Source: Escherichia phage GADS24
Strand: one strand, 5' to 3'
Sequence record: OQ703618.1
Length of the DNA: 64,000 nt
The notes beneath the pieces are model-generated. The model saw nothing but the letters and a program-made list of their open reading frames with translations. It made no database searches and was not told the DNA's origin. How positions within the stretch are numbered: the first letter of the stretch is position 1; every line of letters begins with the position of its first letter. Positions 12,703 to 40,637 of the stretch are shown here, in pieces. The position numbers were made by a program, and so were the translations under genes.

Positions 12703-13803
12703 TTACGCTGTGAAGATTTTATCCCACATCGCAACAACTGCATCTCGGTTATACTTCTTCCATACTGCTTCAGCGCGTTTAACTCGAGCTTCGTATGTGT
12801 CAGTGAATTCTAATACAGCTTTTGTGTAAAGCGCAACTACTTCTTTCTTAGGAGTAGAGGAATCAATTTCTACACGCACAGTATCTGGGTCGTATTCGAA
12901 TGTCGCATGAGGATAATCCTTAAAAACTAACTGGATTACAGGGACACCTTTAGAGATGGCTTCAATAGAACTATTCTCTACTGTACCTGTGTCAGGACAC
13001 GTATTAATAAGTGCTTTAGCTGTTTTAAGACGTTCCATGATTTCACTGTGTGGAGCATCAATAATAACAGGATATTTAGCTGGTGGTGCCCATTTACTAG
13101 GACAGTATCCTACACCATTTTCGCCTAGTGCTTTAATCGCTTCAAGAGCAACATCAGTACGACGCATTTTAGTGTCATAACGTTGTGCACTAATAATCAA
13201 ATCAGTTGCCGGGAGAACTTCTGGTTTTTCAGTCAAACAAATAACCGGATAATCTTCGGCTTCAAACAACGGATTTGCTCGCCAATAATCATAATCAATT
13301 TTGTCAGTCAGACCTGAAGTCATATAACAATATTTGCGTTCAAATTCACGGAAGGCTTTAGTAGGAGCATAACTCTTACCACCATTCTTATGAATTTGAA
13401 TAGTCTGGTCCCAAATTTGAACAATGCCACGAGATACCGGTTCAAATGGTGTTGCCATAAAATTCTTATGAACTTTAGAGAGACCTGCGTCTTTAATTGC
13501 CTGAACGGTTAGTTTAGTCGGTTCCATAGTAACAACAAAATCGTATTCATGTATGCCGGCTAGTTCGACAATCTTACGAGCCATAGTATAACTCATACCT
13601 AGACTGAATTTAGTCAGATGTCCAACAGGGTGGTGTGTAACTTTCCAGTCACCAAACGTGTCATTATCAAAGCCGATATAATCAATATCAGCACCGATGG
13701 ACACAAGATATTTCAACACATTTAAATGTACTGCTTCAAGACCACCTTGTACACGGTCAGGATTAAATGGGACTGCACGAGATGGGATAAACATAACTTT
13801 CAT
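12703..13803 (-). CDS. GT-B fold glycosyltransferase; candidate hmC-DNA sugar transferase (arabinosyltransferase-like)
   Basis: 366 aa; C-terminal GT4-like E-x7-E motif (VENSSIEAISKGVPVI); lies between rIIA.1 and gene 39 where T4 has gene 60; no alpha/beta-gt elsewhere in the window. Confidence 0.75.
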   Translation of the reverse strand: MKVMFIPSRAVPFNPDRVQGGLEAVHLNVLKYLVSIGADIDYIGFDNDTFGDWKVTHHPVGHLTKFSLGMSYTMARKIVELAGIHEYDFVVTMEPTKLTVQAIKDAGLSKVHKNFMATPFEPVSRGIVQIWDQTIQIHKNGGKSYAPTKAFREFERKYCYMTSGLTDKIDYDYWRANPLFEAEDYPVICLTEKPEVLPATDLIISAQRYDTKMRRTDVALEAIKALGENGVGYCPSKWAPPAKYPVIIDAPHSEIMERLKTAKALINTCPDTGTVENSSIEAISKGVPVIQLVFKDYPHATFEYDPDTVRVEIDSSTPKKEVVALYTKAVLEFTDTYEARVKRAEAVWKKYNRDAVVAMWDKIFTA

Positions 13804-32479: not shown

Positions 32480-32842
32480 TTAAAAGAATTTAAATTTTTT
32501 CTTGGTCCGTTCATTAAAAGCTTGTTGTACTTGCATTGTAACACATTTTTCAACATGTGGTGCAAGTTCTGCTTTTCTGTCCTGGTCAAGAACTGCAAAG
32601 TCCATTACGATTTTACCATCAACCCAGTCTAGTTTTGTAATATAGACTATATGATGAGAACCATCTTCAAGCGTAATCAGAATCTCTTGAATGACATTTT
32701 CCATTGCTGAACGGACGATTTTAAGAGATTCATTAAACACTCGTTCTTTGCGAATGTCTTCCCCTTCCGAAGAAGGGGATTCATCAACGATTTCTAGATT
32801 TAAATCATCGAGATTATTCATCGAAATCTTCCATTTCGTCAA
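32480..32842 (-). CDS. 40: gp40-like protein (head vertex assembly chaperone position)
   Basis: 120 aa; assignment by synteny between uvsX and 41. Confidence 0.5.
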   Translation of the reverse strand: MTKWKISMNNLDDLNLEIVDESPSSEGEDIRKERVFNESLKIVRSAMENVIQEILITLEDGSHHIVYITKLDWVDGKIVMDFAVLDQDRKAELAPHVEKCVTMQVQQAFNERTKKKFKFF

Positions 32843-33986
32843 GGTCGTTTTCTATATCTGCTGCAGAAGGAGCATCAGAAGTTTTAACCGGAACTTTAGT
32901 TGTTGCTTTGCAATTAATAAGGTCATTAACAGCGTCATCAACTTCTTTAATAGAAGAGATAGCACCTAGTTTATATTTAGTTTCAATTGCATCTCGGAAA
33001 GGTTTGTGTTTAAACAATGGTCCCCAGAATTCTACACAATCAGTAGCTTTAGCACGCCATGATTTTTCTTCACGAATCATTTCACCTGTTTCTTCGTCAA
33101 GGAATTCACGAGCATACCAACCAGCTTTAGGCTTAACCACAAAACCGATTTCAGTTGCCATTTCTAACAAGCCGCTGAATGGGTCAATACCGCCATCAAA
33201 ATTAACCGTGATTGGGAAAGTAGATTTCTCTTTAACTGTACGAGATTTTTCTGCTTTCAACGTGAAGTCATAACCGGTCAATTCTGTACCTTCTTTAACC
33301 TGACGTTTAGAGATAAAGAATACAGTGTTAGCAGAGTAAAGAATACCTGTACCACCACCCATAATCTCTTTAGGATATAGACCGCCGATTTCCATTGCTG
33401 TATGGTTGATTGCAACACACGGAATATCTTTAATAGTCAGATAAGGAGTCACAATGCGGAACAGAGATTTAAGTGCCTTAGCACGAGACATATCACCTAC
33501 AACTTTCTCGTTCAACGCATCTTCGGTTTCTTTCTTAGATGCAGTATTACCGATTGAATCGATAAAGATAATAACTTTATCGCCGCGTTCAATCGCGTCA
33601 AGCTGATTAGTCATATCAACTTTAAGTTGTTCTACAGATTGAATCGGAGTATGAACTACACGGTCCAAATCAACACCCATTGAACGGAAGTAAGATTCTG
33701 AAGCACCGAATTCTGAGTCATAAAACAAACAGATTGCATCTTTATATTTCTTCATATATGCTGCAACCATGGTCAGTCCAAACAACGTTTTAAAGTGTTT
33801 AGAAGGAGCAGCAAAAATAGTTAAGCCTGATTGCAACCCAGCATTCAGTGCACCACCTAATGCAATATTCAACATCGGAATACGAGTAGGGACTTCATCA
33901 CGATTATTAAACAGCTTAGACTTAGTCAAGTCTGCAGTCATTTTAGAAGTAGAAGCTTTAATCAGACGAGATTTTAAATCAGACAT
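32814..33986 (-). CDS. uvsX: UvsX recombinase (RecA-like)
   Basis: 390 aa; RecA core; N-terminus MSDLKSRLIKASTSKMTA resembles recalled T4 UvsX. Confidence 0.9.
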   Translation of the reverse strand: MSDLKSRLIKASTSKMTADLTKSKLFNNRDEVPTRIPMLNIALGGALNAGLQSGLTIFAAPSKHFKTLFGLTMVAAYMKKYKDAICLFYDSEFGASESYFRSMGVDLDRVVHTPIQSVEQLKVDMTNQLDAIERGDKVIIFIDSIGNTASKKETEDALNEKVVGDMSRAKALKSLFRIVTPYLTIKDIPCVAINHTAMEIGGLYPKEIMGGGTGILYSANTVFFISKRQVKEGTELTGYDFTLKAEKSRTVKEKSTFPITVNFDGGIDPFSGLLEMATEIGFVVKPKAGWYAREFLDEETGEMIREEKSWRAKATDCVEFWGPLFKHKPFRDAIETKYKLGAISSIKEVDDAVNDLINCKATTKVPVKTSDAPSAADIENDLDEMEDFDE

Positions 33987-34085: not shown

Positions 34086-34634
34086 TTAACGAGCCCATTT
34101 GATAATTTCTGTAATCAAATTATTACGTTCGCTTGCATTAAATCCTATAACTTTGTTAGCACCATCATGATTAAGTAATTGATATGTTTGGATTTTGTTA
34201 TGAATTGCAAACTCTTCAAAATGTGAAATGACTGTATTAAAACCGAATGAAGACAAAGTAATAAGGTCGTCTTCAAAACTTTCAGTCATTTCGTTACGTG
34301 TTAAAATAATTGTGAACACATCATGGTTTTGGCAAAGACGAACATAATCCTGTTCATAAACATCAAGAACCGAGTCCGCATCTTGTCGAATACGTCCATA
34401 AACCCAGTTACTAATATATCCACGGTCTAACAGATAAATCTTAGTAGGGTCTAAATAATTCAACATCGTTTCGAAACAGCCAACTTCATTTCGAGACTTA
34501 ACATCAAAACGTCCATCAACTGTTCGTTTAGGGAAATCAATTTTTACATATCTTTCACTAATTTCCATTATGTCATTAATGAAAGTTGTTTTACCAGCAT
34601 TATCCGGGCCATCTACTAAAATAATTTTAGCCAT
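34086..34634 (-). CDS. P-loop nucleotide/nucleoside kinase-like protein
   Basis: 182 aa; Walker A VDGPDNAGKTT and LLDRGYIS (DR motif) as in dNMP/thymidylate-type kinases; first gene of the modification cluster. Confidence 0.6.
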   Translation of the reverse strand: MAKIILVDGPDNAGKTTFINDIMEISERYVKIDFPKRTVDGRFDVKSRNEVGCFETMLNYLDPTKIYLLDRGYISNWVYGRIRQDADSVLDVYEQDYVRLCQNHDVFTIILTRNEMTESFEDDLITLSSFGFNTVISHFEEFAIHNKIQTYQLLNHDGANKVIGFNASERNNLITEIIKWAR

Positions 34635-34635
34635 T

Positions 34636-35535
34636 TTATTCCTCGATTACGACATCTTCGTATTTAGGTATATTATACGGTGAAGAAATTAAAGCATTAA
34701 AGTAGATGAACTCGCCAAGACCTGGATGGAATACTTCTTCAGGATTTTCGAAATATTGAATCTTCGGCCGTCCTTTAAGAATTTGATAGTACTCAGTTTT
34801 AGTTGGTTTAAAAATTCGAATCAGCGCTTCTTCAGGATACTTATTTCTATCGAAGCTATTATTTGGATCGGTTACATAAAGCGGTTGACCTAATTGAATT
34901 GCACATTCAACCACTTGTTCAAAACGATAGCACGGGTCACTAATTCGAAATGGATGAAAAATACCATCTAGATGAATAGGAGCCAAATCACCTACAAAAC
35001 GCTGCATGATGGAAGGACGTATAACTTTCTGGGTTACGATAATCTTATTACCATCTGCACCAGCGTTAACCAGCACTTCCTTTTGACGTTCATTCAACAC
35101 AGTAGTTTGAAGTGAACGATTAACCGACAACATGTCGGTTTTTAAGAATTCGTCAATATAAAAACGTGGTTTATTAGGGTCTGCAGTGATATTGAAATTG
35201 AATTCTACATCAAAAGCTCCGTCATATCCAGTGATATCTGTTATTAGAAAATCACAATCATAATAAGCAATTAATGAATCAACCACAAATTCATTTTCAG
35301 ACCAGAAATATTTACGAGTGTTATACGCGTTATCTTTATACCATAACGGAACAAACTTAAATTCTGGGAAAAGACGTTCACATTCTTTAATATCAGATGC
35401 ATTACGTGGATATGTAATAACATCACCCGGATTAGCACGGTGCAAATGAAGTTGGAAGTTGCCATCCTTAAGGATAGCATACTCTCCAGTTTCATAAGAC
35501 CGCATACTCAAGATAGGTACGCGGAAAATAGCCAT
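34636..35535 (-). CDS. Hypothetical protein (299 aa) in the modification cluster; possible transferase
   Basis: Immediately downstream of gene 42 with ATGA overlap; Asp-rich YYDCDF segment; no family recognised. Confidence 0.55.
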   Translation of the reverse strand: MAIFRVPILSMRSYETGEYAILKDGNFQLHLHRANPGDVITYPRNASDIKECERLFPEFKFVPLWYKDNAYNTRKYFWSENEFVVDSLIAYYDCDFLITDITGYDGAFDVEFNFNITADPNKPRFYIDEFLKTDMLSVNRSLQTTVLNERQKEVLVNAGADGNKIIVTQKVIRPSIMQRFVGDLAPIHLDGIFHPFRISDPCYRFEQVVECAIQLGQPLYVTDPNNSFDRNKYPEEALIRIFKPTKTEYYQILKGRPKIQYFENPEEVFHPGLGEFIYFNALISSPYNIPKYEDVVIEE

Positions 35536-36251
35536 TAGTCAAGGAATCCTTTAACATAATCAAAATCACGTTCAAACACATGGGCACTTACCATGGTATG
35601 AGTATAATCACCAACTTCTACACCACATTCGTTAGCGATATAATGAAGTAATTTTCCTTGGAGATAAAAATCCAACTGCATAACAACAGCACAGTTCTGA
35701 GAACGCATATGGCAGTGGGTATAAAGCTTACCATCACGAATATAATAAGTCACTGAGTCAGTACATGGATATTCAAGCGTTTCGTCCGAATCAAGCAAAG
35801 CCTGATCAGAACTTTCTAGAATTTGGAACACAACTCTTCGAGAGTTAGGTTTCTCTTTAAGTTCTTTGAGAAGAGCTGGTAACTGGGCCGCAATTCGTGG
35901 ACCATAGAAAGTGTTGAAGTTTGCAGGCAAAGCATCTGATTTCGGTTTAGAAATAAATTTAGCAACGTTAGGATATGCCTTAAATGCTTCTTCTGCATCA
36001 GTTCCGCCAGAAATCATAAATTTCCAGAAATCTTCGGCATATTCATAAGAGATGCGGTTAATACGTGGGTCGGTCATTTTGAATGATGATGGAGTGTCAA
36101 CAACTACTGTCATAGACCCAATTTCATTACAACGTCCAATACGAGAATCAGTTACGAATTCCGGGTTTTCTAAAATCTCACGATTGACTGCTTTAAATGC
36201 GGATTGAAAATCTGCGGCTTTAATATATTTCATTGTGTTATGTTTTCCCAT
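35535..36251 (-). CDS. 42: dCMP hydroxymethylase (thymidylate synthase family), gene 42
   Basis: 238 aa; TS-family core with nucleophile Cys in YPCTDS, RS dyad 20-21 residues later and Asp at the position of TS Asn177 (cytosine specificity). Confidence 0.75.
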   Translation of the reverse strand: MGKHNTMKYIKAADFQSAFKAVNREILENPEFVTDSRIGRCNEIGSMTVVVDTPSSFKMTDPRINRISYEYAEDFWKFMISGGTDAEEAFKAYPNVAKFISKPKSDALPANFNTFYGPRIAAQLPALLKELKEKPNSRRVVFQILESSDQALLDSDETLEYPCTDSVTYYIRDGKLYTHCHMRSQNCAVVMQLDFYLQGKLLHYIANECGVEVGDYTHTMVSAHVFERDFDYVKGFLD

Positions 36252-36292: not shown

Positions 36293-36532
36293 TTATTTGA
36301 ATTTCTTAGCGATGTTGATATAACGTAGAGCTTCGGCATCGATACTTCTAAGGACACTATGAAGGAATGCGTCGGCATAGTATTCTAGTTGAACAGGTTC
36401 TTTAATCGCTTTAGCCGCTTTAGTTTCAAACAGGCCCATAAGGGCCTTTTTAAGAATTTGTTCGTTGCTGGTAATTTTAATAGTCAAAATCTCTTCATTA
36501 AGTTGGTGGTTAAAAGTTTTTCTAGAAATCAT
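36293..36532 (-). CDS. Hypothetical protein (79 aa)
   Basis: Small ORF between the U32-like gene and gene 42. Confidence 0.45.
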   Translation of the reverse strand: MISRKTFNHQLNEEILTIKITSNEQILKKALMGLFETKAAKAIKEPVQLEYYADAFLHSVLRSIDAEALRYINIAKKFK

Positions 36533-37689
36533 TCCGGGTACCTCAAAGCGTCGTCAGAGTTAGTTATATCAATAATAGATATAGAATTTTCTGATAACCC
36601 ATTTTTAGATAACTGACGTTTATAATATCTTTCACAATATGTACACGTCGTCCCGCAGATTTCATTAGCACAATCGAAATCTGGATGTCTGAACCACCTT
36701 TTTTCTAAAAAGCCGTCTAACAAAGAGGTTTCAATATTTACCGTATGTGAAAACTCGGTCTCATTTTCAAGAGTGAAAATGGTCTCTAAAGGCTTCCACA
36801 GTTCTAACAAATTACCTTCAAACTTTTCAGAAGCGTATGCTTCAAGAACTTTCAAAATGTAGTCTGTGCTACCTGTACGTCCTGAAACTTTGAATTGAGT
36901 GATACCAATATCATTATAAAGTTTCAAATCTTGTGGACGAACAAAACGAGTTCTCAACCAGTTAAATGGGTCTGTATCACGAGCTTTAATACAGTGCTGC
37001 ATAGGATATCCATTTAAGGATTTAGCATCATCAGCTGTAACATCAGTACTATGGAAAATATAGCAAGAGTCACGATAGCTACAATGTGTTGTATACCCTT
37101 TACCAGCATTAGAACAGAACTCATTTACAAGAACTTCAAATATTATATTGTTCTTATTGCAAAACTCTGCTGCACGCTTCAGGAAAGAAACTGAACGGTT
37201 CTTATGAATTCCACAGCAGACCTTTTTGATATTATACTGGTCATGTAAGTATTTGATTTGAGTTACAGCATCGACATGTAAAATTGTTGAAACTTCAATC
37301 TCAATGTCTTTATTGACTTCACGAACAATTTCCATAACAACAGGGTTAGCGATAGTAATACGCCATACGCCTATTGACCAAAGATACTGAACATAATCCT
37401 GAATAGCTTTCTTCTTCCACTCAACTAGTTCTCTTTTTGAACCGGGATTTATCGTGTTGAGTGTATAGTTAAAGCAAATACCTAATTCGTTACAACGTTT
37501 AACGTAATCTTCTAACATCTTTTTGTCAACGTCAGGAAGCCTAAAATCAGGTCTGGCTGCTACAAAAGCCATTTCTCTTGTAGAGCCGTATACTTCGTTT
37601 ATCAAGCTATTAGGATAAGTTTTATTGAGCTCTACGATTTTATCAAGAAGAGCTAAATCAAAATTCGTTCCGATTTTAAAAGTATTCAT
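36529..37689 (-). CDS. Cys-rich TIM-barrel-like enzyme, peptidase-U32-like (putative Fe-S protein), about 386 aa
   Basis: N-terminal pattern resembling U32 proteins (..EVYGS..ARPDF..ICFNYTLNT), central EVLVNEFCSNAGKGYTTHCSY, C-terminal CGTTCTYC (CxxxCxxC); trimmed to first ATG. Confidence 0.55.
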   Translation of the reverse strand: MNTFKIGTNFDLALLDKIVELNKTYPNSLINEVYGSTREMAFVAARPDFRLPDVDKKMLEDYVKRCNELGICFNYTLNTINPGSKRELVEWKKKAIQDYVQYLWSIGVWRITIANPVVMEIVREVNKDIEIEVSTILHVDAVTQIKYLHDQYNIKKVCCGIHKNRSVSFLKRAAEFCNKNNIIFEVLVNEFCSNAGKGYTTHCSYRDSCYIFHSTDVTADDAKSLNGYPMQHCIKARDTDPFNWLRTRFVRPQDLKLYNDIGITQFKVSGRTGSTDYILKVLEAYASEKFEGNLLELWKPLETIFTLENETEFSHTVNIETSLLDGFLEKRWFRHPDFDCANEICGTTCTYCERYYKRQLSKNGLSENSISIIDITNSDDALRYPE

Positions 37690-37748
37690 TTTTTTTTTGC
37701 ATCTCACGTTAATTGACGCGATGGTTTTTGCAGGTCTTACTTAAATTA

Positions 37749-38150
37749 TTATAGATTCGGTTTATATGATTTAAATGTTTCGAATTCGCCTTTATTCATA
37801 AGAGCTTTGAATTCGTCGGGACGCATAGCTTTGTCGTCGATAATCCAATCATATACTGGTTTATGTGTTAGCAAATTATGGTACTTCAAGCCAATGTTTG
37901 CCAAGTTCTGAATAAGACTTGGGAGAATGTCAATTGCTATACGACCAGGACCTACTGACTTCATACCGCGAGCAGTGTAAAGCGTTATGGTATGCCCTGC
38001 ATCATACAGGGCATTAATGGCAGACACCATTTCGACGTCTGGTTTGAAGTTCACGTAATCACGATTGTTATTCCACTCTGTTATACAATCATCGACATCA
38101 AAACAAAGATTAAGCATGTTTTCTACACGGTGCATTAGATTCGTTCCCAT
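37749..38150 (-). CDS. HAD-superfamily phosphatase (KdsC-like sugar-phosphate phosphatase)
   Basis: 133 aa; motif I FDVDDCIT (DxDx[T/V]) near the N-terminus; overlaps the upstream gene. Confidence 0.65.
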   Translation of the reverse strand: MGTNLMHRVENMLNLCFDVDDCITEWNNNRDYVNFKPDVEMVSAINALYDAGHTITLYTARGMKSVGPGRIAIDILPSLIQNLANIGLKYHNLLTHKPVYDWIIDDKAMRPDEFKALMNKGEFETFKSYKPNL

Positions 38151-39820
38151 TGATGAGTGATATCGCCACCGATTGGACGATAGGAAACACCAGTTTCTTT
38201 ATCAGTTAGTACCCATTTACCAGGATTTTTTGTAATCAGAGTAGCCGTTACAGGTTCTGCCATGTCATAACTAATAGAGCCGTCCTGAAGTACACGGCCC
38301 ATGTTACGTAATTGCTTAGTCAGAAGTTCCATACCTTTATAATATGCGGCTACCGCTTTAAGTGGATTATTCTTGAAATAACCACCTAATGCAATCCAGA
38401 TAATTGCTACAGCCAAATGATGATACTCGTTAAATGAACTCATCTTTCCATATTTGTAAACTAATGGATTGATGTTAATAGTCACATTACAAGTTGTTTC
38501 ATCAATAGTAAACTGTCCCCAGGTCGGATTAGCGTTGAATTCATCATAACCTGAAACAGCATAAAGCACTTTAGCTTCATCGTACAATTTTGGCCCGTAA
38601 ATCTTGGTTTCGCCAAAATATCCACGAGGGTCGATAAACTTGACTTCGCCGTTATCAGTAATCATAGTATTACTGAAGTTCGGGTCACCGTGAATAACAG
38701 AGTACTGTCCCTGAGAACGGTTATGATAACGAATAAGGTGTTCTAAAGCTTGTTTCAGCATTGGCTTCAGACGCCCAATCTTAGTGTAGTTCACATGTGT
38801 GATTTTACCAAATGAATCAATCAATGGTTGAATACTTTCACAACGATCAATAACTTTCGTATAGAATTCTTTAGTGAAATCACGACGAACAGTTTCAGGA
38901 CTTACAAAATAAGTGTCTGTGCTGAATTTCAGTGCATCTAAAATTGCATCAACAATTTGTGGACGAGCAAGACTCGATTTAGATTTAATATATTCAAATG
39001 CCGGCTTACCTTTAATGCGTTCCATTTCAAAGTTATTTTCATTAACAGAAACTAACTGAGGAACTGAATCTGATTTCACTTTAAGATACCATGAAATCTC
39101 ATCTTTCTGAAGAGCTCGTCCCTGTTCGGTTAATGCGAATTTAGTTACAGTTTCTTCACCAATTTCAACTGCATTAAAACTACGATTAAGTTCACGAACT
39201 TCATGAGCTTTTTCAAGTTTAGGCATATCACCTAAATCAATTAGATTCATAAGCTCTGATTTATTGAATGCGCCGCTGTAAAGGAATTCTACGAAATCAC
39301 GTCCTTTGCAGTATTCATGAATTTCCTCATCAGTAGAACCCATATAGAATTCCCAGTCTTTGAATTGATAAATTCCTACAACATTACCACCTGTTGAACC
39401 TACGTTAGTGATATTTTCACCGTCGAAATTATATCGACATTCGTCACCCTTAACATAGATTGCGTTAACATTCCAAGACCATGAACCAAAATCAGGAATA
39501 ATATCACACCAGTTAACAATTACATTATGGCCGTCTAAATCTTTGTGTAATTTAGCAAGAGCATAAGCGGAACCATATGCTTCATCAACTGTACGAATAG
39601 TCACATTGAACCCTTCTTGCTCACAATAAGCTCGAACAGTTTCAGCAAATTTTGAATGAACTACTACAATAATTTCATCTGCGCCAAGGTCAGAATAAAT
39701 TGTATACAAATTGCTCAGAATAGTGTCTTGTTTATAGTTAACAAGCACCTTAGGAATATGATGCGTTATTGGATACAAACGAGTTGCCAGTCCAGCACCA
39801 AGAATAACAGCTTTTTTCAT
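38135..39820 (-). CDS. Bifunctional sugar-1-phosphate nucleotidyltransferase (N-terminal) / sugar kinase (C-terminal)
   Basis: 561 aa; N-terminal ILGAGLATRLYPIT..PKVLV (RmlA/GlmU-type G-x-G-x-R); C-terminal HGDPNFSNTMI..FIDPRGYFG resembling APH/choline-kinase catalytic loop. Confidence 0.7.
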   Translation of the reverse strand: MKKAVILGAGLATRLYPITHHIPKVLVNYKQDTILSNLYTIYSDLGADEIIVVVHSKFAETVRAYCEQEGFNVTIRTVDEAYGSAYALAKLHKDLDGHNVIVNWCDIIPDFGSWSWNVNAIYVKGDECRYNFDGENITNVGSTGGNVVGIYQFKDWEFYMGSTDEEIHEYCKGRDFVEFLYSGAFNKSELMNLIDLGDMPKLEKAHEVRELNRSFNAVEIGEETVTKFALTEQGRALQKDEISWYLKVKSDSVPQLVSVNENNFEMERIKGKPAFEYIKSKSSLARPQIVDAILDALKFSTDTYFVSPETVRRDFTKEFYTKVIDRCESIQPLIDSFGKITHVNYTKIGRLKPMLKQALEHLIRYHNRSQGQYSVIHGDPNFSNTMITDNGEVKFIDPRGYFGETKIYGPKLYDEAKVLYAVSGYDEFNANPTWGQFTIDETTCNVTININPLVYKYGKMSSFNEYHHLAVAIIWIALGGYFKNNPLKAVAAYYKGMELLTKQLRNMGRVLQDGSISYDMAEPVTATLITKNPGKWVLTDKETGVSYRPIGGDITHQWERI

Positions 39821-39861: not shown

Positions 39862-40005
39862 CTAGTTAAAGCATTCATACTTTGCTTGTAGTCCAATCAT
39901 AATCCATCCAATTACAAGTGTTGGAATCATTACTGGAGCCGTTAAGCTCCAGTAGATAGTCATGACAAGCATCAATAGTAAAAGTCCTATTGTTATTGCT
40001 TTCAT
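39862..40005 (-). CDS. Small hydrophobic peptide (47 aa)
   Basis: ATG overlaps the stop of the isomerase gene (ATGA); translation MKAITIGLLLLMLVMTIYWSLTAPVMIPTLVIGWIMIGL; below ORF-track cutoff. Confidence 0.3.
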   Translation of the reverse strand: MKAITIGLLLLMLVMTIYWSLTAPVMIPTLVIGWIMIGLQAKYECFN

Positions 40006-40637
40006 TGTTCGCCTCGTAACATGGCACCTAGTGCACCACCAGGGTGGAACTTAAGGAAGTCATTAGAGGTAAATCCACGTTCAGACGAAAGGTTGATAGC
40101 GAACGTATCGATAAGCGCTAACAACAATGTAGTAGACATTGTCGGAGCTAAAGAGTTCTCGTCAACTTCTACCGCGATGCCTGTACAGAAAGAGTAATCA
40201 AAAAGGGCTTCATTTTCTTGCGGAATGTCAGGGTTACAATGTAACAGAATCTGTTTAACCTGAGGACGAATCATACGAAGATGTTTAGCAACACCTATCA
40301 TTTCTTCGGTTTTACCAGAACGACTAATATGAATCAACACATCATTAGGCGCAATGAATCCTGCATCACCGTGAGAATAATGCCCAGTGTTCAAGTACAT
40401 ACTCGGGATACCGAGTGAAGCAAATGTCTCAGAAGCTTTAGTTGCAATATTAGCATTCTTACCAACACCTGTAATAATTACTCGGCTTTCATAATTACTA
40501 AGTCCTGGGCGTCGAAGAGTTTCTAGAATAGCATTATAACGAGCAGGGTTTTGACTAATTACTTTGGCCATAGTAGCCAAAGAAGAAGCTTGTTTTACGA
40601 TTGCGTCAATAGCGATAGTAATAGGAGTAGTTTTCAT
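40002..40637 (-). CDS. SIS-domain sugar-phosphate isomerase (KdsD/GutQ-like arabinose-5-phosphate isomerase)
   Basis: 211 aa; SIS motifs ITGVGKNANIA and SRSGKTEE, C-terminal FHPGGALG as in API enzymes. Confidence 0.75.
   Translation of the reverse strand: MKTTPITIAIDAIVKQASSLATMAKVISQNPARYNAILETLRRPGLSNYESRVIITGVGKNANIATKASETFASLGIPSMYLNTGHYSHGDAGFIAPNDVLIHISRSGKTEEMIGVAKHLRMIRPQVKQILLHCNPDIPQENEALFDYSFCTGIAVEVDENSLAPTMSTTLLLALIDTFAINLSSERGFTSNDFLKFHPGGALGAMLRGEQ

Follow-up and report, generated by a model that had tools for sequence, protein, structure and literature searches.

The closest described relatives of the locus analyzed here are the DNA modification genes of phage RB69, whose DNA contains mono- and di-arabinosylated 5-hydroxycytosine (Lee et al., NAR 2026, PMC13326640). 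Arabinosyl-5-hydroxycytosine has been shown in the literature for the phages RB69, NP, Bas46, and Bas47. For RB69, it was demonstrated experimentally that gp48 produces 5-hydroxy-dCMP (5hodCMP) with O2 and flavin, that gp159, a dNMP kinase of the T4 gp1 type, converts 5hodCMP to 5hodCDP, and that 5hodC enters DNA when gp48 and gp159 alone are expressed (PMC13326640). Two further proteins of RB69 and DLP3 were named “nucleotide kinase” and “arabinosyltransferase 1” by structure prediction only (PMC13326640). The DLP3 proteins gp76 and gp77 act on DNA, and single DLP3 transferases, including arabinosyltransferase 1, did not arabinosylate 5hoC-DNA in vitro; the authors could not tell whether a mononucleotide or DNA accepts the first arabinose (PMC13326640). 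The Afh enzymes of phage HY126 are reported to have been characterized by He et al. (Nat Chem Biol 2026).

The DNA examined in the present study, hereafter the window, is a stretch of 64,000 nucleotides from Escherichia phage GADS24 (OQ703618.1). It belongs to an RB69-like Mosigvirus that is 98% identical to RB69, and the 2.4 kb around the two genes of interest showed 97.7–98.5% nucleotide identity with RB69 and some 150 further Mosigvirus genomes. Both genes lie on the minus strand, with the coordinates, sizes, and motifs given in a preliminary description of the locus: a 182 aa protein is encoded at 34086–34634 (orthologs RB69 ORF045c/gp45, DLP3 gp78, and Thanatos TH1_064), and a 299 aa protein at 34636–35535 (orthologs RB69 ORF046c+ORF047c, DLP3 gp79, and Thanatos TH1_063). 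The RB69 reference record has the latter gene in two ORFs, which represent a single gene split through a sequencing error (PMC13326640), whereas in the GADS24 window the ORF is intact, at 299 aa. Both genes, with the roles predicted for them, are already known from the literature, and our own models of both proteins independently reproduced the structure-based assignments of Lee et al.

The two genes are flanked by uvsX (390 aa; 32814–33986), directly downstream of the 182 aa kinase gene, and by a gene for a 238 aa thymidylate-synthase homolog (35535–36251, minus strand), the counterpart of T4 gene 42. The order synthase-transferase-kinase-uvsX is the same in RB69. The corresponding T4 segment has the order gene 42, beta-gt, segA, and uvsX, so that the two ORFs occupy the place of segA and beta-gt, and the proposal that beta-glucosyltransferase is replaced next to uvsX was borne out by position. 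The synthase stop and the transferase start overlap in the sequence TAATG, and the kinase ATG lies 1 nt from the transferase stop, with a GAGG Shine-Dalgarno sequence within the end of the transferase gene. The synthase-transferase-kinase trio is thus translationally coupled. Scans of the cluster for promoters and terminators gave results no better than shuffled sequences.

The 238 aa protein matched PF00303 (E = 2e-15), is an ortholog of RB69 gp48, and is nearly identical to the flavin-dependent hydroxylase homolog of HY126 in PDB 9iqc/9ir2 (E = 1.8e-162), which identifies it as a 5-hydroxy-dCMP synthase and not as a hydroxymethylase. Since the gp48 enzyme makes 5hodCMP (PMC13326640), the modified nucleotide at this locus is 5-hydroxy-dCMP instead of the hm-dCMP considered in the preliminary description. 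The remainder of the RB69 gp45–55 cluster was found upstream, also on the minus strand. It consists of a conserved 79 aa ORF (RB69 ORF049c; 36293–36532; phrog_8601, E = 1e-47), which also occurs in Marfavirus MY02; a 392 aa peptidase-U32-family protein (RB69 gp50; 36529–37707; PF01136, E = 7.7e-11), an accessory member of the cluster whose gene stop overlaps the 79 aa ORF by 4 nt; a 133 aa HAD-type phosphatase (RB69 gp51; 37749–38150; phrog_1238, E = 5e-43); a 561 aa bifunctional protein (RB69 gp52:53; 38135–39820), with a nucleotidyltransferase domain at its N-terminus (PF00483, E = 8e-10) and APH/fructosamine-kinase-like matches at its C-terminus; and a 211 aa arabinose-5-phosphate isomerase (RB69 gp55; 40002–40637), which matched the SIS domain PF01380 and phrog_5670, “arabinose 5-phosphate isomerase” (E = 3e-116). 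The phosphatase resembles HY126 AfhF, an arabinose-1,5-bisphosphate 5-phosphatase, and its function was assigned through that homology; the 561 aa protein is AfhE-like, which points to UDP-arabinofuranose synthesis, and AfhE is reported to be a UDP-arabinose pyrophosphorylase (PMC13326640). A second glycosyltransferase of 366 aa, the ortholog of RB69 ORF003c/gp3, is encoded at a distance of 21 kb, in the interval from rIIA to gene 39 (12703–13803, minus strand), and matched the “phage HY126 glycosyltransferase” of PDB 9iqz/9ir0 (E = 3.6e-250). By orthology, and by the co-location of the synthase and UDP-arabinofuranose genes, the two genes belong to the cassette represented by RB69 gp45–55, HY126 Afh, and DLP3 gp76–83. 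We consider it likely that both serve arabinosyl-5-hydroxycytosine formation, the 182 aa protein as a kinase acting on the modified monophosphate and the 299 aa protein as the first arabinofuranosyltransferase.

The U32-family neighbor deserves a separate remark. It is 79% identical to TH1_065 of the Shewanella phage Thanatos, compared with 44% for the kinase and 48% for the transferase, and the gene is not present in the clusters of JS98 or of the Acinetobacter phages. Hydroxylases that work independently of O2 belong to the U32 family: RlhA, which forms 5-hydroxycytidine in rRNA, TrhP, and UbiU/V. Pairwise comparison of the neighbor with E. coli RlhA and UbiU gave weak local matches only. 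That this protein might provide an anaerobic route to 5-hydroxycytosine is a speculation of ours and does not appear in the text of Lee et al. (PMC13326640).

Both ORFs are real genes and not chance ORFs, as judged from their PHROG matches, their occurrence in hundreds of phage records, their invariant motif columns, and their high-confidence folds. The 182 aa protein (PHROG match, E = 2e-45) contains the Walker A motif GPDNAGKTT at residues 9–17, within VDGPDNAGKTT (residues 7–17), and DRG at residues 70–72, within LDRG (residues 69–72). Its P-loop conforms to the TMPK pattern, (D/E)G-x-D-x-x-GK-T-T, and the D-R motif after strand 3 is present. Residues G9, D11, G14, K15, T16, D70, and R71 were invariant among 20 homologs and were kept in distant members, and the family has invariant motifs of its own, FPKRT, GRF, SRNEV, and FEDDLI. 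In an hhalign comparison, the family profile aligned over 156 columns with that of 82 distant relatives (probability 99.9, E = 2e-36); of these relatives, 54 are matches to PF02223 (Thymidylate_kin). The protein folded with high confidence into a P-loop NMP-kinase structure closest to thymidylate kinases. It is a divergent member of the thymidylate-kinase superfamily, in agreement with its initial description as dNMP/thymidylate-kinase-like.

The distance from thymidylate kinases proper is considerable. No match of the 182 aa protein to PF02223 was obtained at E ≤ 0.1, its score against TIGR00041 was 16.7 bits, below the cut-off of 83.25 that defines a dTMP kinase proper, its alignment to E. 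coli Tmk was limited to residues 1–24, that is, the P-loop, and sequence and profile searches of the PDB with the kinase returned P-loop matches alone. The window kinase is also 20–30 residues shorter than thymidylate kinases such as vaccinia A48R (2v54) and E. coli Tmk, in which DR is usually followed by Y, H, or F, whereas G or A follows in the window kinase family. The failed dTMP-kinase thresholds and the P-loop-only alignment speak against the view that the protein is a general pyrimidine dNMP/thymidylate kinase that boosts nucleotide supply and is only loosely linked to modification, as does its position: the gene adjoins the dCMP-modifying thymidylate-synthase homolog at at least 15 independent loci, including loci of non-T4-like phages, and a gp1-type dNMP kinase is already present in the phages and Tmk in the host. 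The thymidylate-kinase fold and superfamily membership, the annotation “thymidylate kinase” in many GenBank records, and a fully conserved orphan copy in the pathway-less phage MP1, described below, are consistent with such a general role, but we judge it quite unlikely.

Thymidylate kinases use dTMP, whereas the likely substrate of the window kinase is 5-hydroxy-dCMP or a derivative. In thymidylate kinases, the acidic P-loop residue (here D11) and the DR pair (here D70–R71) bind the dNMP through its 3'-OH and its phosphate, which favors a dNMP over a sugar as the substrate. A role as a sugar kinase, one of two possibilities raised in the preliminary description, is moreover unlikely because the 561 aa neighbor already has sugar kinase and nucleotidyltransferase domains. 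The other possibility, phosphorylation of a modified deoxynucleotide, is the most plausible one.

Among other small kinases, the DNA base kinase 5-HMUDK (phage M6 gp54; PMC8989533) is likewise a P-loop protein encoded beside a thymidylate-synthase homolog in a hypermodification cluster. An identity of the window kinase with this type was rejected, since M6 gp54 shares the P-loop only and has no D-R motif; the hhalign comparison of the two (probability 81) was confined to the P-loop and the generic core. Furthermore, once phosphorylated in a 5-HMUDK-like manner, the 5-OH would be closed to glycosylation and not prepared for it. The T4 gp1 dNMP kinase, RB69 gp159, is also a phage kinase for modified dCMP. 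As gp159 already phosphorylates 5hodCMP, the 182 aa kinase looks redundant at that step.

The 299 aa protein, which had been described as having no recognizable family, proved to be a member of phrog_3891 (E = 1e-156) with 109 homologs, all from phages or metagenomes. The YYDCDF segment (residues 91–96), previously singled out, falls where the family alignment is variable, and it is the ITDITGY motif following it that is conserved. No Pfam or NCBIfam match was found for the 299 aa protein, so that membership in GT4/Glycos_transf_1 was not indicated, and sequence and profile searches of the PDB (with a profile of 48 sequences) returned nothing, which made structure prediction necessary. The model (pLDDT 94.7) consists of two Rossmann-like halves, the two-domain arrangement of GT-B enzymes. 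The best fold match was sucrose-phosphate synthase (6kih; score 17.6), the same top match as in Lee et al., followed by BshA (16.5), PimA (16.2), the HY126 glycosyltransferase 9iqz (14.2), and T4 alpha-gt (13.6). By its predicted structure, the protein is a compact GT-B glycosyltransferase. The remote-homology and structure-prediction checks proposed in the preliminary description have thus placed the two proteins in the thymidylate-kinase superfamily and the GT-B fold, respectively.

The invariant residues of the transferase family are grouped at three places: S10-M11-R12-S13 in the N-terminal loop after strand 1; F193-x-P-F-R197-I-S-D200 after the strand at residues 192–194; and T222-D-P-N225, K246, and H270-P-G272, the last of which, together with a near-invariant E275, stands at the start of the helix at residues 271–278. 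By their positions in the model, these residues are plausible candidates for binding of the donor nucleotide-sugar.

The 299 aa gene and T4 beta-gt have genomic position alone in common. No homology between the 299 aa family and T4 beta-gt was detected (hhalign probability 0.1), so that this is a non-orthologous replacement in the beta-gt slot and not divergence of beta-gt itself. At 299 aa the window transferase is smaller than T4 beta-gt (GT63; 351 aa) and alpha-gt (GT72; 400 aa), and it is acidic (pI 5.07; family median 5.1), whereas beta-gt has a pI of 9.05. The T4 glucosyltransferases use a hydroxymethyl acceptor, whereas the predicted acceptor of the window transferase is the 5-OH on the ring and its predicted donor UDP-arabinofuranose. 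There was also no sequence similarity between the 299 aa family and the 366 aa transferase of the window.

The suggestion that the 299 aa protein could act as the second of two transferases and attach a further sugar agrees with the GT-B fold as regards sugar transfer, but the order probably does not hold. The 299 aa protein is probably the first, base-proximal transferase, and the 366 aa protein the second: Thanatos, which has only the 299 aa type of transferase, is mono-arabinosylated, on which grounds that type was argued to act first (PMC13326640). The Thanatos protein TH1_063 shares 48% identity with the 299 aa protein and is encoded between a synthase homolog and a kinase homolog. A different activity has been claimed for TH1_063, namely that of a sugar-activating UDP-pentose pyrophosphorylase, on the basis of UDP-xylose detected by LC-MS/MS from UTP, xylose-1-phosphate, and purified TH1_063 (PMC12838424), and given this degree of identity the claim would extend to the window protein. 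The predicted fold is, however, GT-B and not that of a nucleotidyltransferase, and the cluster already has a nucleotidyltransferase domain (PF00483) in the ortholog of AfhE, the UDP-arabinose pyrophosphorylase reported for HY126 (PMC13326640). A trace product could also be explained by a co-purifying host pyrophosphorylase or by reverse glycosyltransferase chemistry. We therefore hold this activity to be highly improbable for the 299 aa protein and retain its assignment as an arabinosyltransferase.

The distribution of the genes across phages was examined by tblastn. Kinase matches came from 343 phage records and transferase matches from 348, and the tallies by genus were almost the same. In IMG/VR, 16 loci with a true kinase homolog were identified. 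The synthase, transferase, and kinase genes lie within 6 kb at 14 of them; at another, where the contig is truncated, the transferase adjoins the kinase. The trio is common to JS98, Marfavirus, Thanatos, and two distant metagenomic phages, in varying arrangements: bifunctional-HAD-kinase-synthase-transferase-uvsX in JS98, kinase-U32-79aa-synthase-transferase in Marfavirus, and synthase-transferase-kinase in the two metagenomic phages, whose kinases are 28–31% identical to the window kinase (hhalign probability 99) and which both have a flavin reductase gene beside the cluster.

An exception was found in Morganella phage MP1 (Gualtarvirus), whose kinase, 54% identical and with all of the signature motifs preserved, is encoded at the same location, between gene 43 and uvsX. 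The entire 163 kb MP1 genome, scanned with a positive control included, revealed no homolog of the 5hodCMP synthase or gp42, no 299 aa or 366 aa transferase, no alpha-gt or beta-gt, and no sugar-activation genes. The MP1 kinase is either a remnant or a kinase useful outside the pathway, and its presence lowers confidence in models that tie the kinase strictly to the transferase.

Fused forms of the kinase were observed as well. About 8 of roughly 45 cluster representatives of the kinase family (E ≤ 1e-10) are fusions of 314–357 aa, the C-terminal half of which is an MBD4-type mismatch glycosylase domain with a helix-hairpin-helix, whose profile matched MBD4 structures with E = 3.7e-20. Invariant in the fusions are the hairpin GxGK and the Asp aligned to MBD4 Asp560. 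The fusions adjoin synthase homologs, a flavin reductase, and an isomerase (locus L010), and in a PolA phage one of them has a distant homolog of the 299 aa protein as its neighbor (locus L012). A search of the window found neither an MBD4-like domain nor paralogs of either gene. The pairing of a kinase with a glycosylase-like protein echoes the 5-HMUDK/aGPT-Pplase system, although the partner there is aGPT-Pplase, whereas the domain fused to the relatives of the window kinase is of the MBD4 type.

The coupling of the trio and its co-inheritance across very different phages bear on when the first sugar is added. Conceivably, the 299 aa transferase attaches arabinose at the mononucleotide stage, to 5hodCMP, the gp1-type dNMP kinase cannot accept the resulting bulky arabinosyl-5hodCMP, and the 182 aa protein serves as the kinase dedicated to this compound, so that arabinosyl-5hodCTP is polymerized directly. 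With gp159 covering the conversion of 5hodCMP to 5hodCDP, the second kinase would then have a non-redundant job. The inactivity of the DLP3 homolog on 5hoC-DNA in vitro also fits, and arabinosylation of a mononucleotide was left open by the authors (PMC13326640). The acidity of the transferase family, with a median pI of 5.1 against 9.05 for beta-gt, points weakly in the same direction; pI is a poor discriminator between DNA and nucleotide acceptors, because T4 alpha-gt, with a pI of 6.1, acts on DNA. Such a pre-replicative order, the main rival of our preferred model, is, on the other hand, at variance with the post-replicative timing of every phage DNA glycosylation characterized so far (T4 alpha-gt and beta-gt; DLP3 gp76 and gp77), with the incorporation of 5hodC into DNA by gp48 and gp159 alone, and with the occurrence in MP1 of the kinase without any transferase, and the MBD4-type DNA glycosylase fusions of the kinase relatives point to a DNA-linked context. 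We give it only a small chance. If true, it would have no known precedent as a glycosylation of DNA precursors before replication, and it would explain why a second kinase is co-inherited despite a gp1-type kinase that handles 5hodCMP.

From the cassette membership, the folds, and the gene order, we infer the substrates of the two enzymes and the order of the steps in our preferred model, in which the 182 aa kinase acts on the modified monophosphate and the 299 aa protein is the first transferase, as follows. The synthase homolog would hydroxylate dCMP to 5-hydroxy-dCMP, as shown for its RB69 and HY126 orthologs. The 182 aa kinase would then phosphorylate 5hodCMP to the diphosphate in an ATP-dependent manner, towards 5hodCTP and its incorporation by the phage polymerase. 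UDP-arabinofuranose would be supplied by the isomerase, the bifunctional enzyme, and the phosphatase encoded just upstream, and the 299 aa GT-B enzyme would transfer the first, base-proximal D-arabinofuranose from it to the 5-OH of the base. The 366 aa transferase (12703–13803) may subsequently add the second arabinose. In this model, the 182 aa protein is probably the native kinase of a mobile synthase-transferase-kinase module, functional also in phages without a gp1-type kinase.

The substrate of the kinase and the acceptor of the first transferase, nucleotide or DNA, are the two steps of the pathway that have so far been predicted only, and the coupled trio, the orphan kinase of MP1, and the MBD4-type fusions sharpen both questions. 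According to the cited literature, the cassette protects phage DNA from many restriction enzymes, from the Brig1 glycosylase, and from some CRISPR-Cas systems; it is thus relevant to phage-host arms races and to the choice of therapeutic phages.

The transferases of the arabinosyl-5-hydroxycytosine pathway were examined in the window and in related phages. The 366 aa ORF located between rIIA and gene 39 (window 12703-13803, minus strand) is the second arabinosyltransferase of the RB69 ORF003c type; it is virtually identical to the protein crystallised as "phage HY126 glycosyltransferase" (PDB 9iqz/9ir0), and had no match in Pfam or NCBIfam. In the RB69 reference record (AY303349), the 299 aa transferase is represented by two ORFs (ORF046c/047c), as is the bifunctional nucleotidyltransferase-kinase (ORF052c/053c). 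Each of the two genes is one intact ORF in the window (34636-35535 and 38135-39820, respectively), as would be expected if sequencing errors in the older record had produced the RB69 splits.

In Serratia phage PS2 (NC_024121), a gene beside the gp42 homolog (L009 6001-6927) encodes a hypothetical protein of 308 aa. Its sequence weakly resembles that of the 299 aa transferase family in the family's N-terminal half (24.6% over 180 aa, E 3e-7); this phage also carries beta-gt and a beta-glucosyl-HMC alpha-glucosyltransferase. Published findings disagree on TH1_063 of Shewanella phage Thanatos (L018 35460-36362), which is orthologous to the 299 aa GT-B protein. TH1_063 was reported as a UDP-xylose pyrophosphorylase, and the true nucleotidyltransferase homolog, TH1_060, was inactive in the same assay (PMC12838424). 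The fold evidence argues against this assignment of TH1_063.

The cluster further contains a gene for a peptidase-U32-family protein (window 36529-37707, minus strand), accompanied by a 79 aa ORF (window 36293-36532, minus strand). The U32-family protein shares 79% identity with TH1_065 of Thanatos, and the identities of the kinase (44%) and the transferase (48%) between the same two phages are well below this value. A Cys cluster, CANEICGTTCTYC, was found at its C-terminus. The clusters of JS98 and the Acinetobacter phages are without a U32-family gene. Since the U32 family includes O2-independent hydroxylases, namely RlhA (responsible for ho5C in 23S rRNA), TrhP, and UbiU/V, the window protein could conceivably act as an anaerobic C5-hydroxylase, as a backup to the O2/flavin-dependent thymidylate-synthase homolog. 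In distant metagenomic versions of the cluster, the synthase homolog is adjoined by a flavin reductase gene of the Pfam Flavodoxin_2 or FMN_red family (L004 1-523, L005 6739-7293, and L010 9068-9613), which fits its flavin-dependent hydroxylation chemistry. No flavin reductase gene is present in the window's cluster, which presumably depends on a host reductase.

An orphan homolog of the 182 aa kinase was found in Morganella phage vB_MmoM_MP1 (KX078569; L037 13995-14525), between gene 43 and uvsX, with 54% identity to the window kinase and every motif intact. Across the whole MP1 genome (L037-L041), no 5hodCMP synthase or gp42 homolog, 299 aa or 366 aa transferase, alpha-gt, beta-gt, or arabinose-activation gene was detectable; a dCTP pyrophosphatase is annotated.

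Other kinase relatives carry a fused DNA mismatch glycosylase domain of the MBD4 type (profile E 3.7e-20 against MBD4 structures), as encoded at L010 8001-9074, L012 127-1092, and L015 1446-2390 (fusion proteins P0168, P0169, P0174, P0176, P0178, P0183, P0185, and P0225). The Asp aligning with MBD4 Asp560, the catalytic residue of MBD4, is invariant in the kinase fusions. Their gene neighbours include thymidylate-synthase homologs, a flavin reductase, and an SIS isomerase, and in the L012 locus a gene distantly homologous to that of the 299 aa transferase lies directly downstream. The MBD4-type domain may serve in the repair of deaminated 5-hydroxyuracil:G mispairs, or in base flipping for modification.
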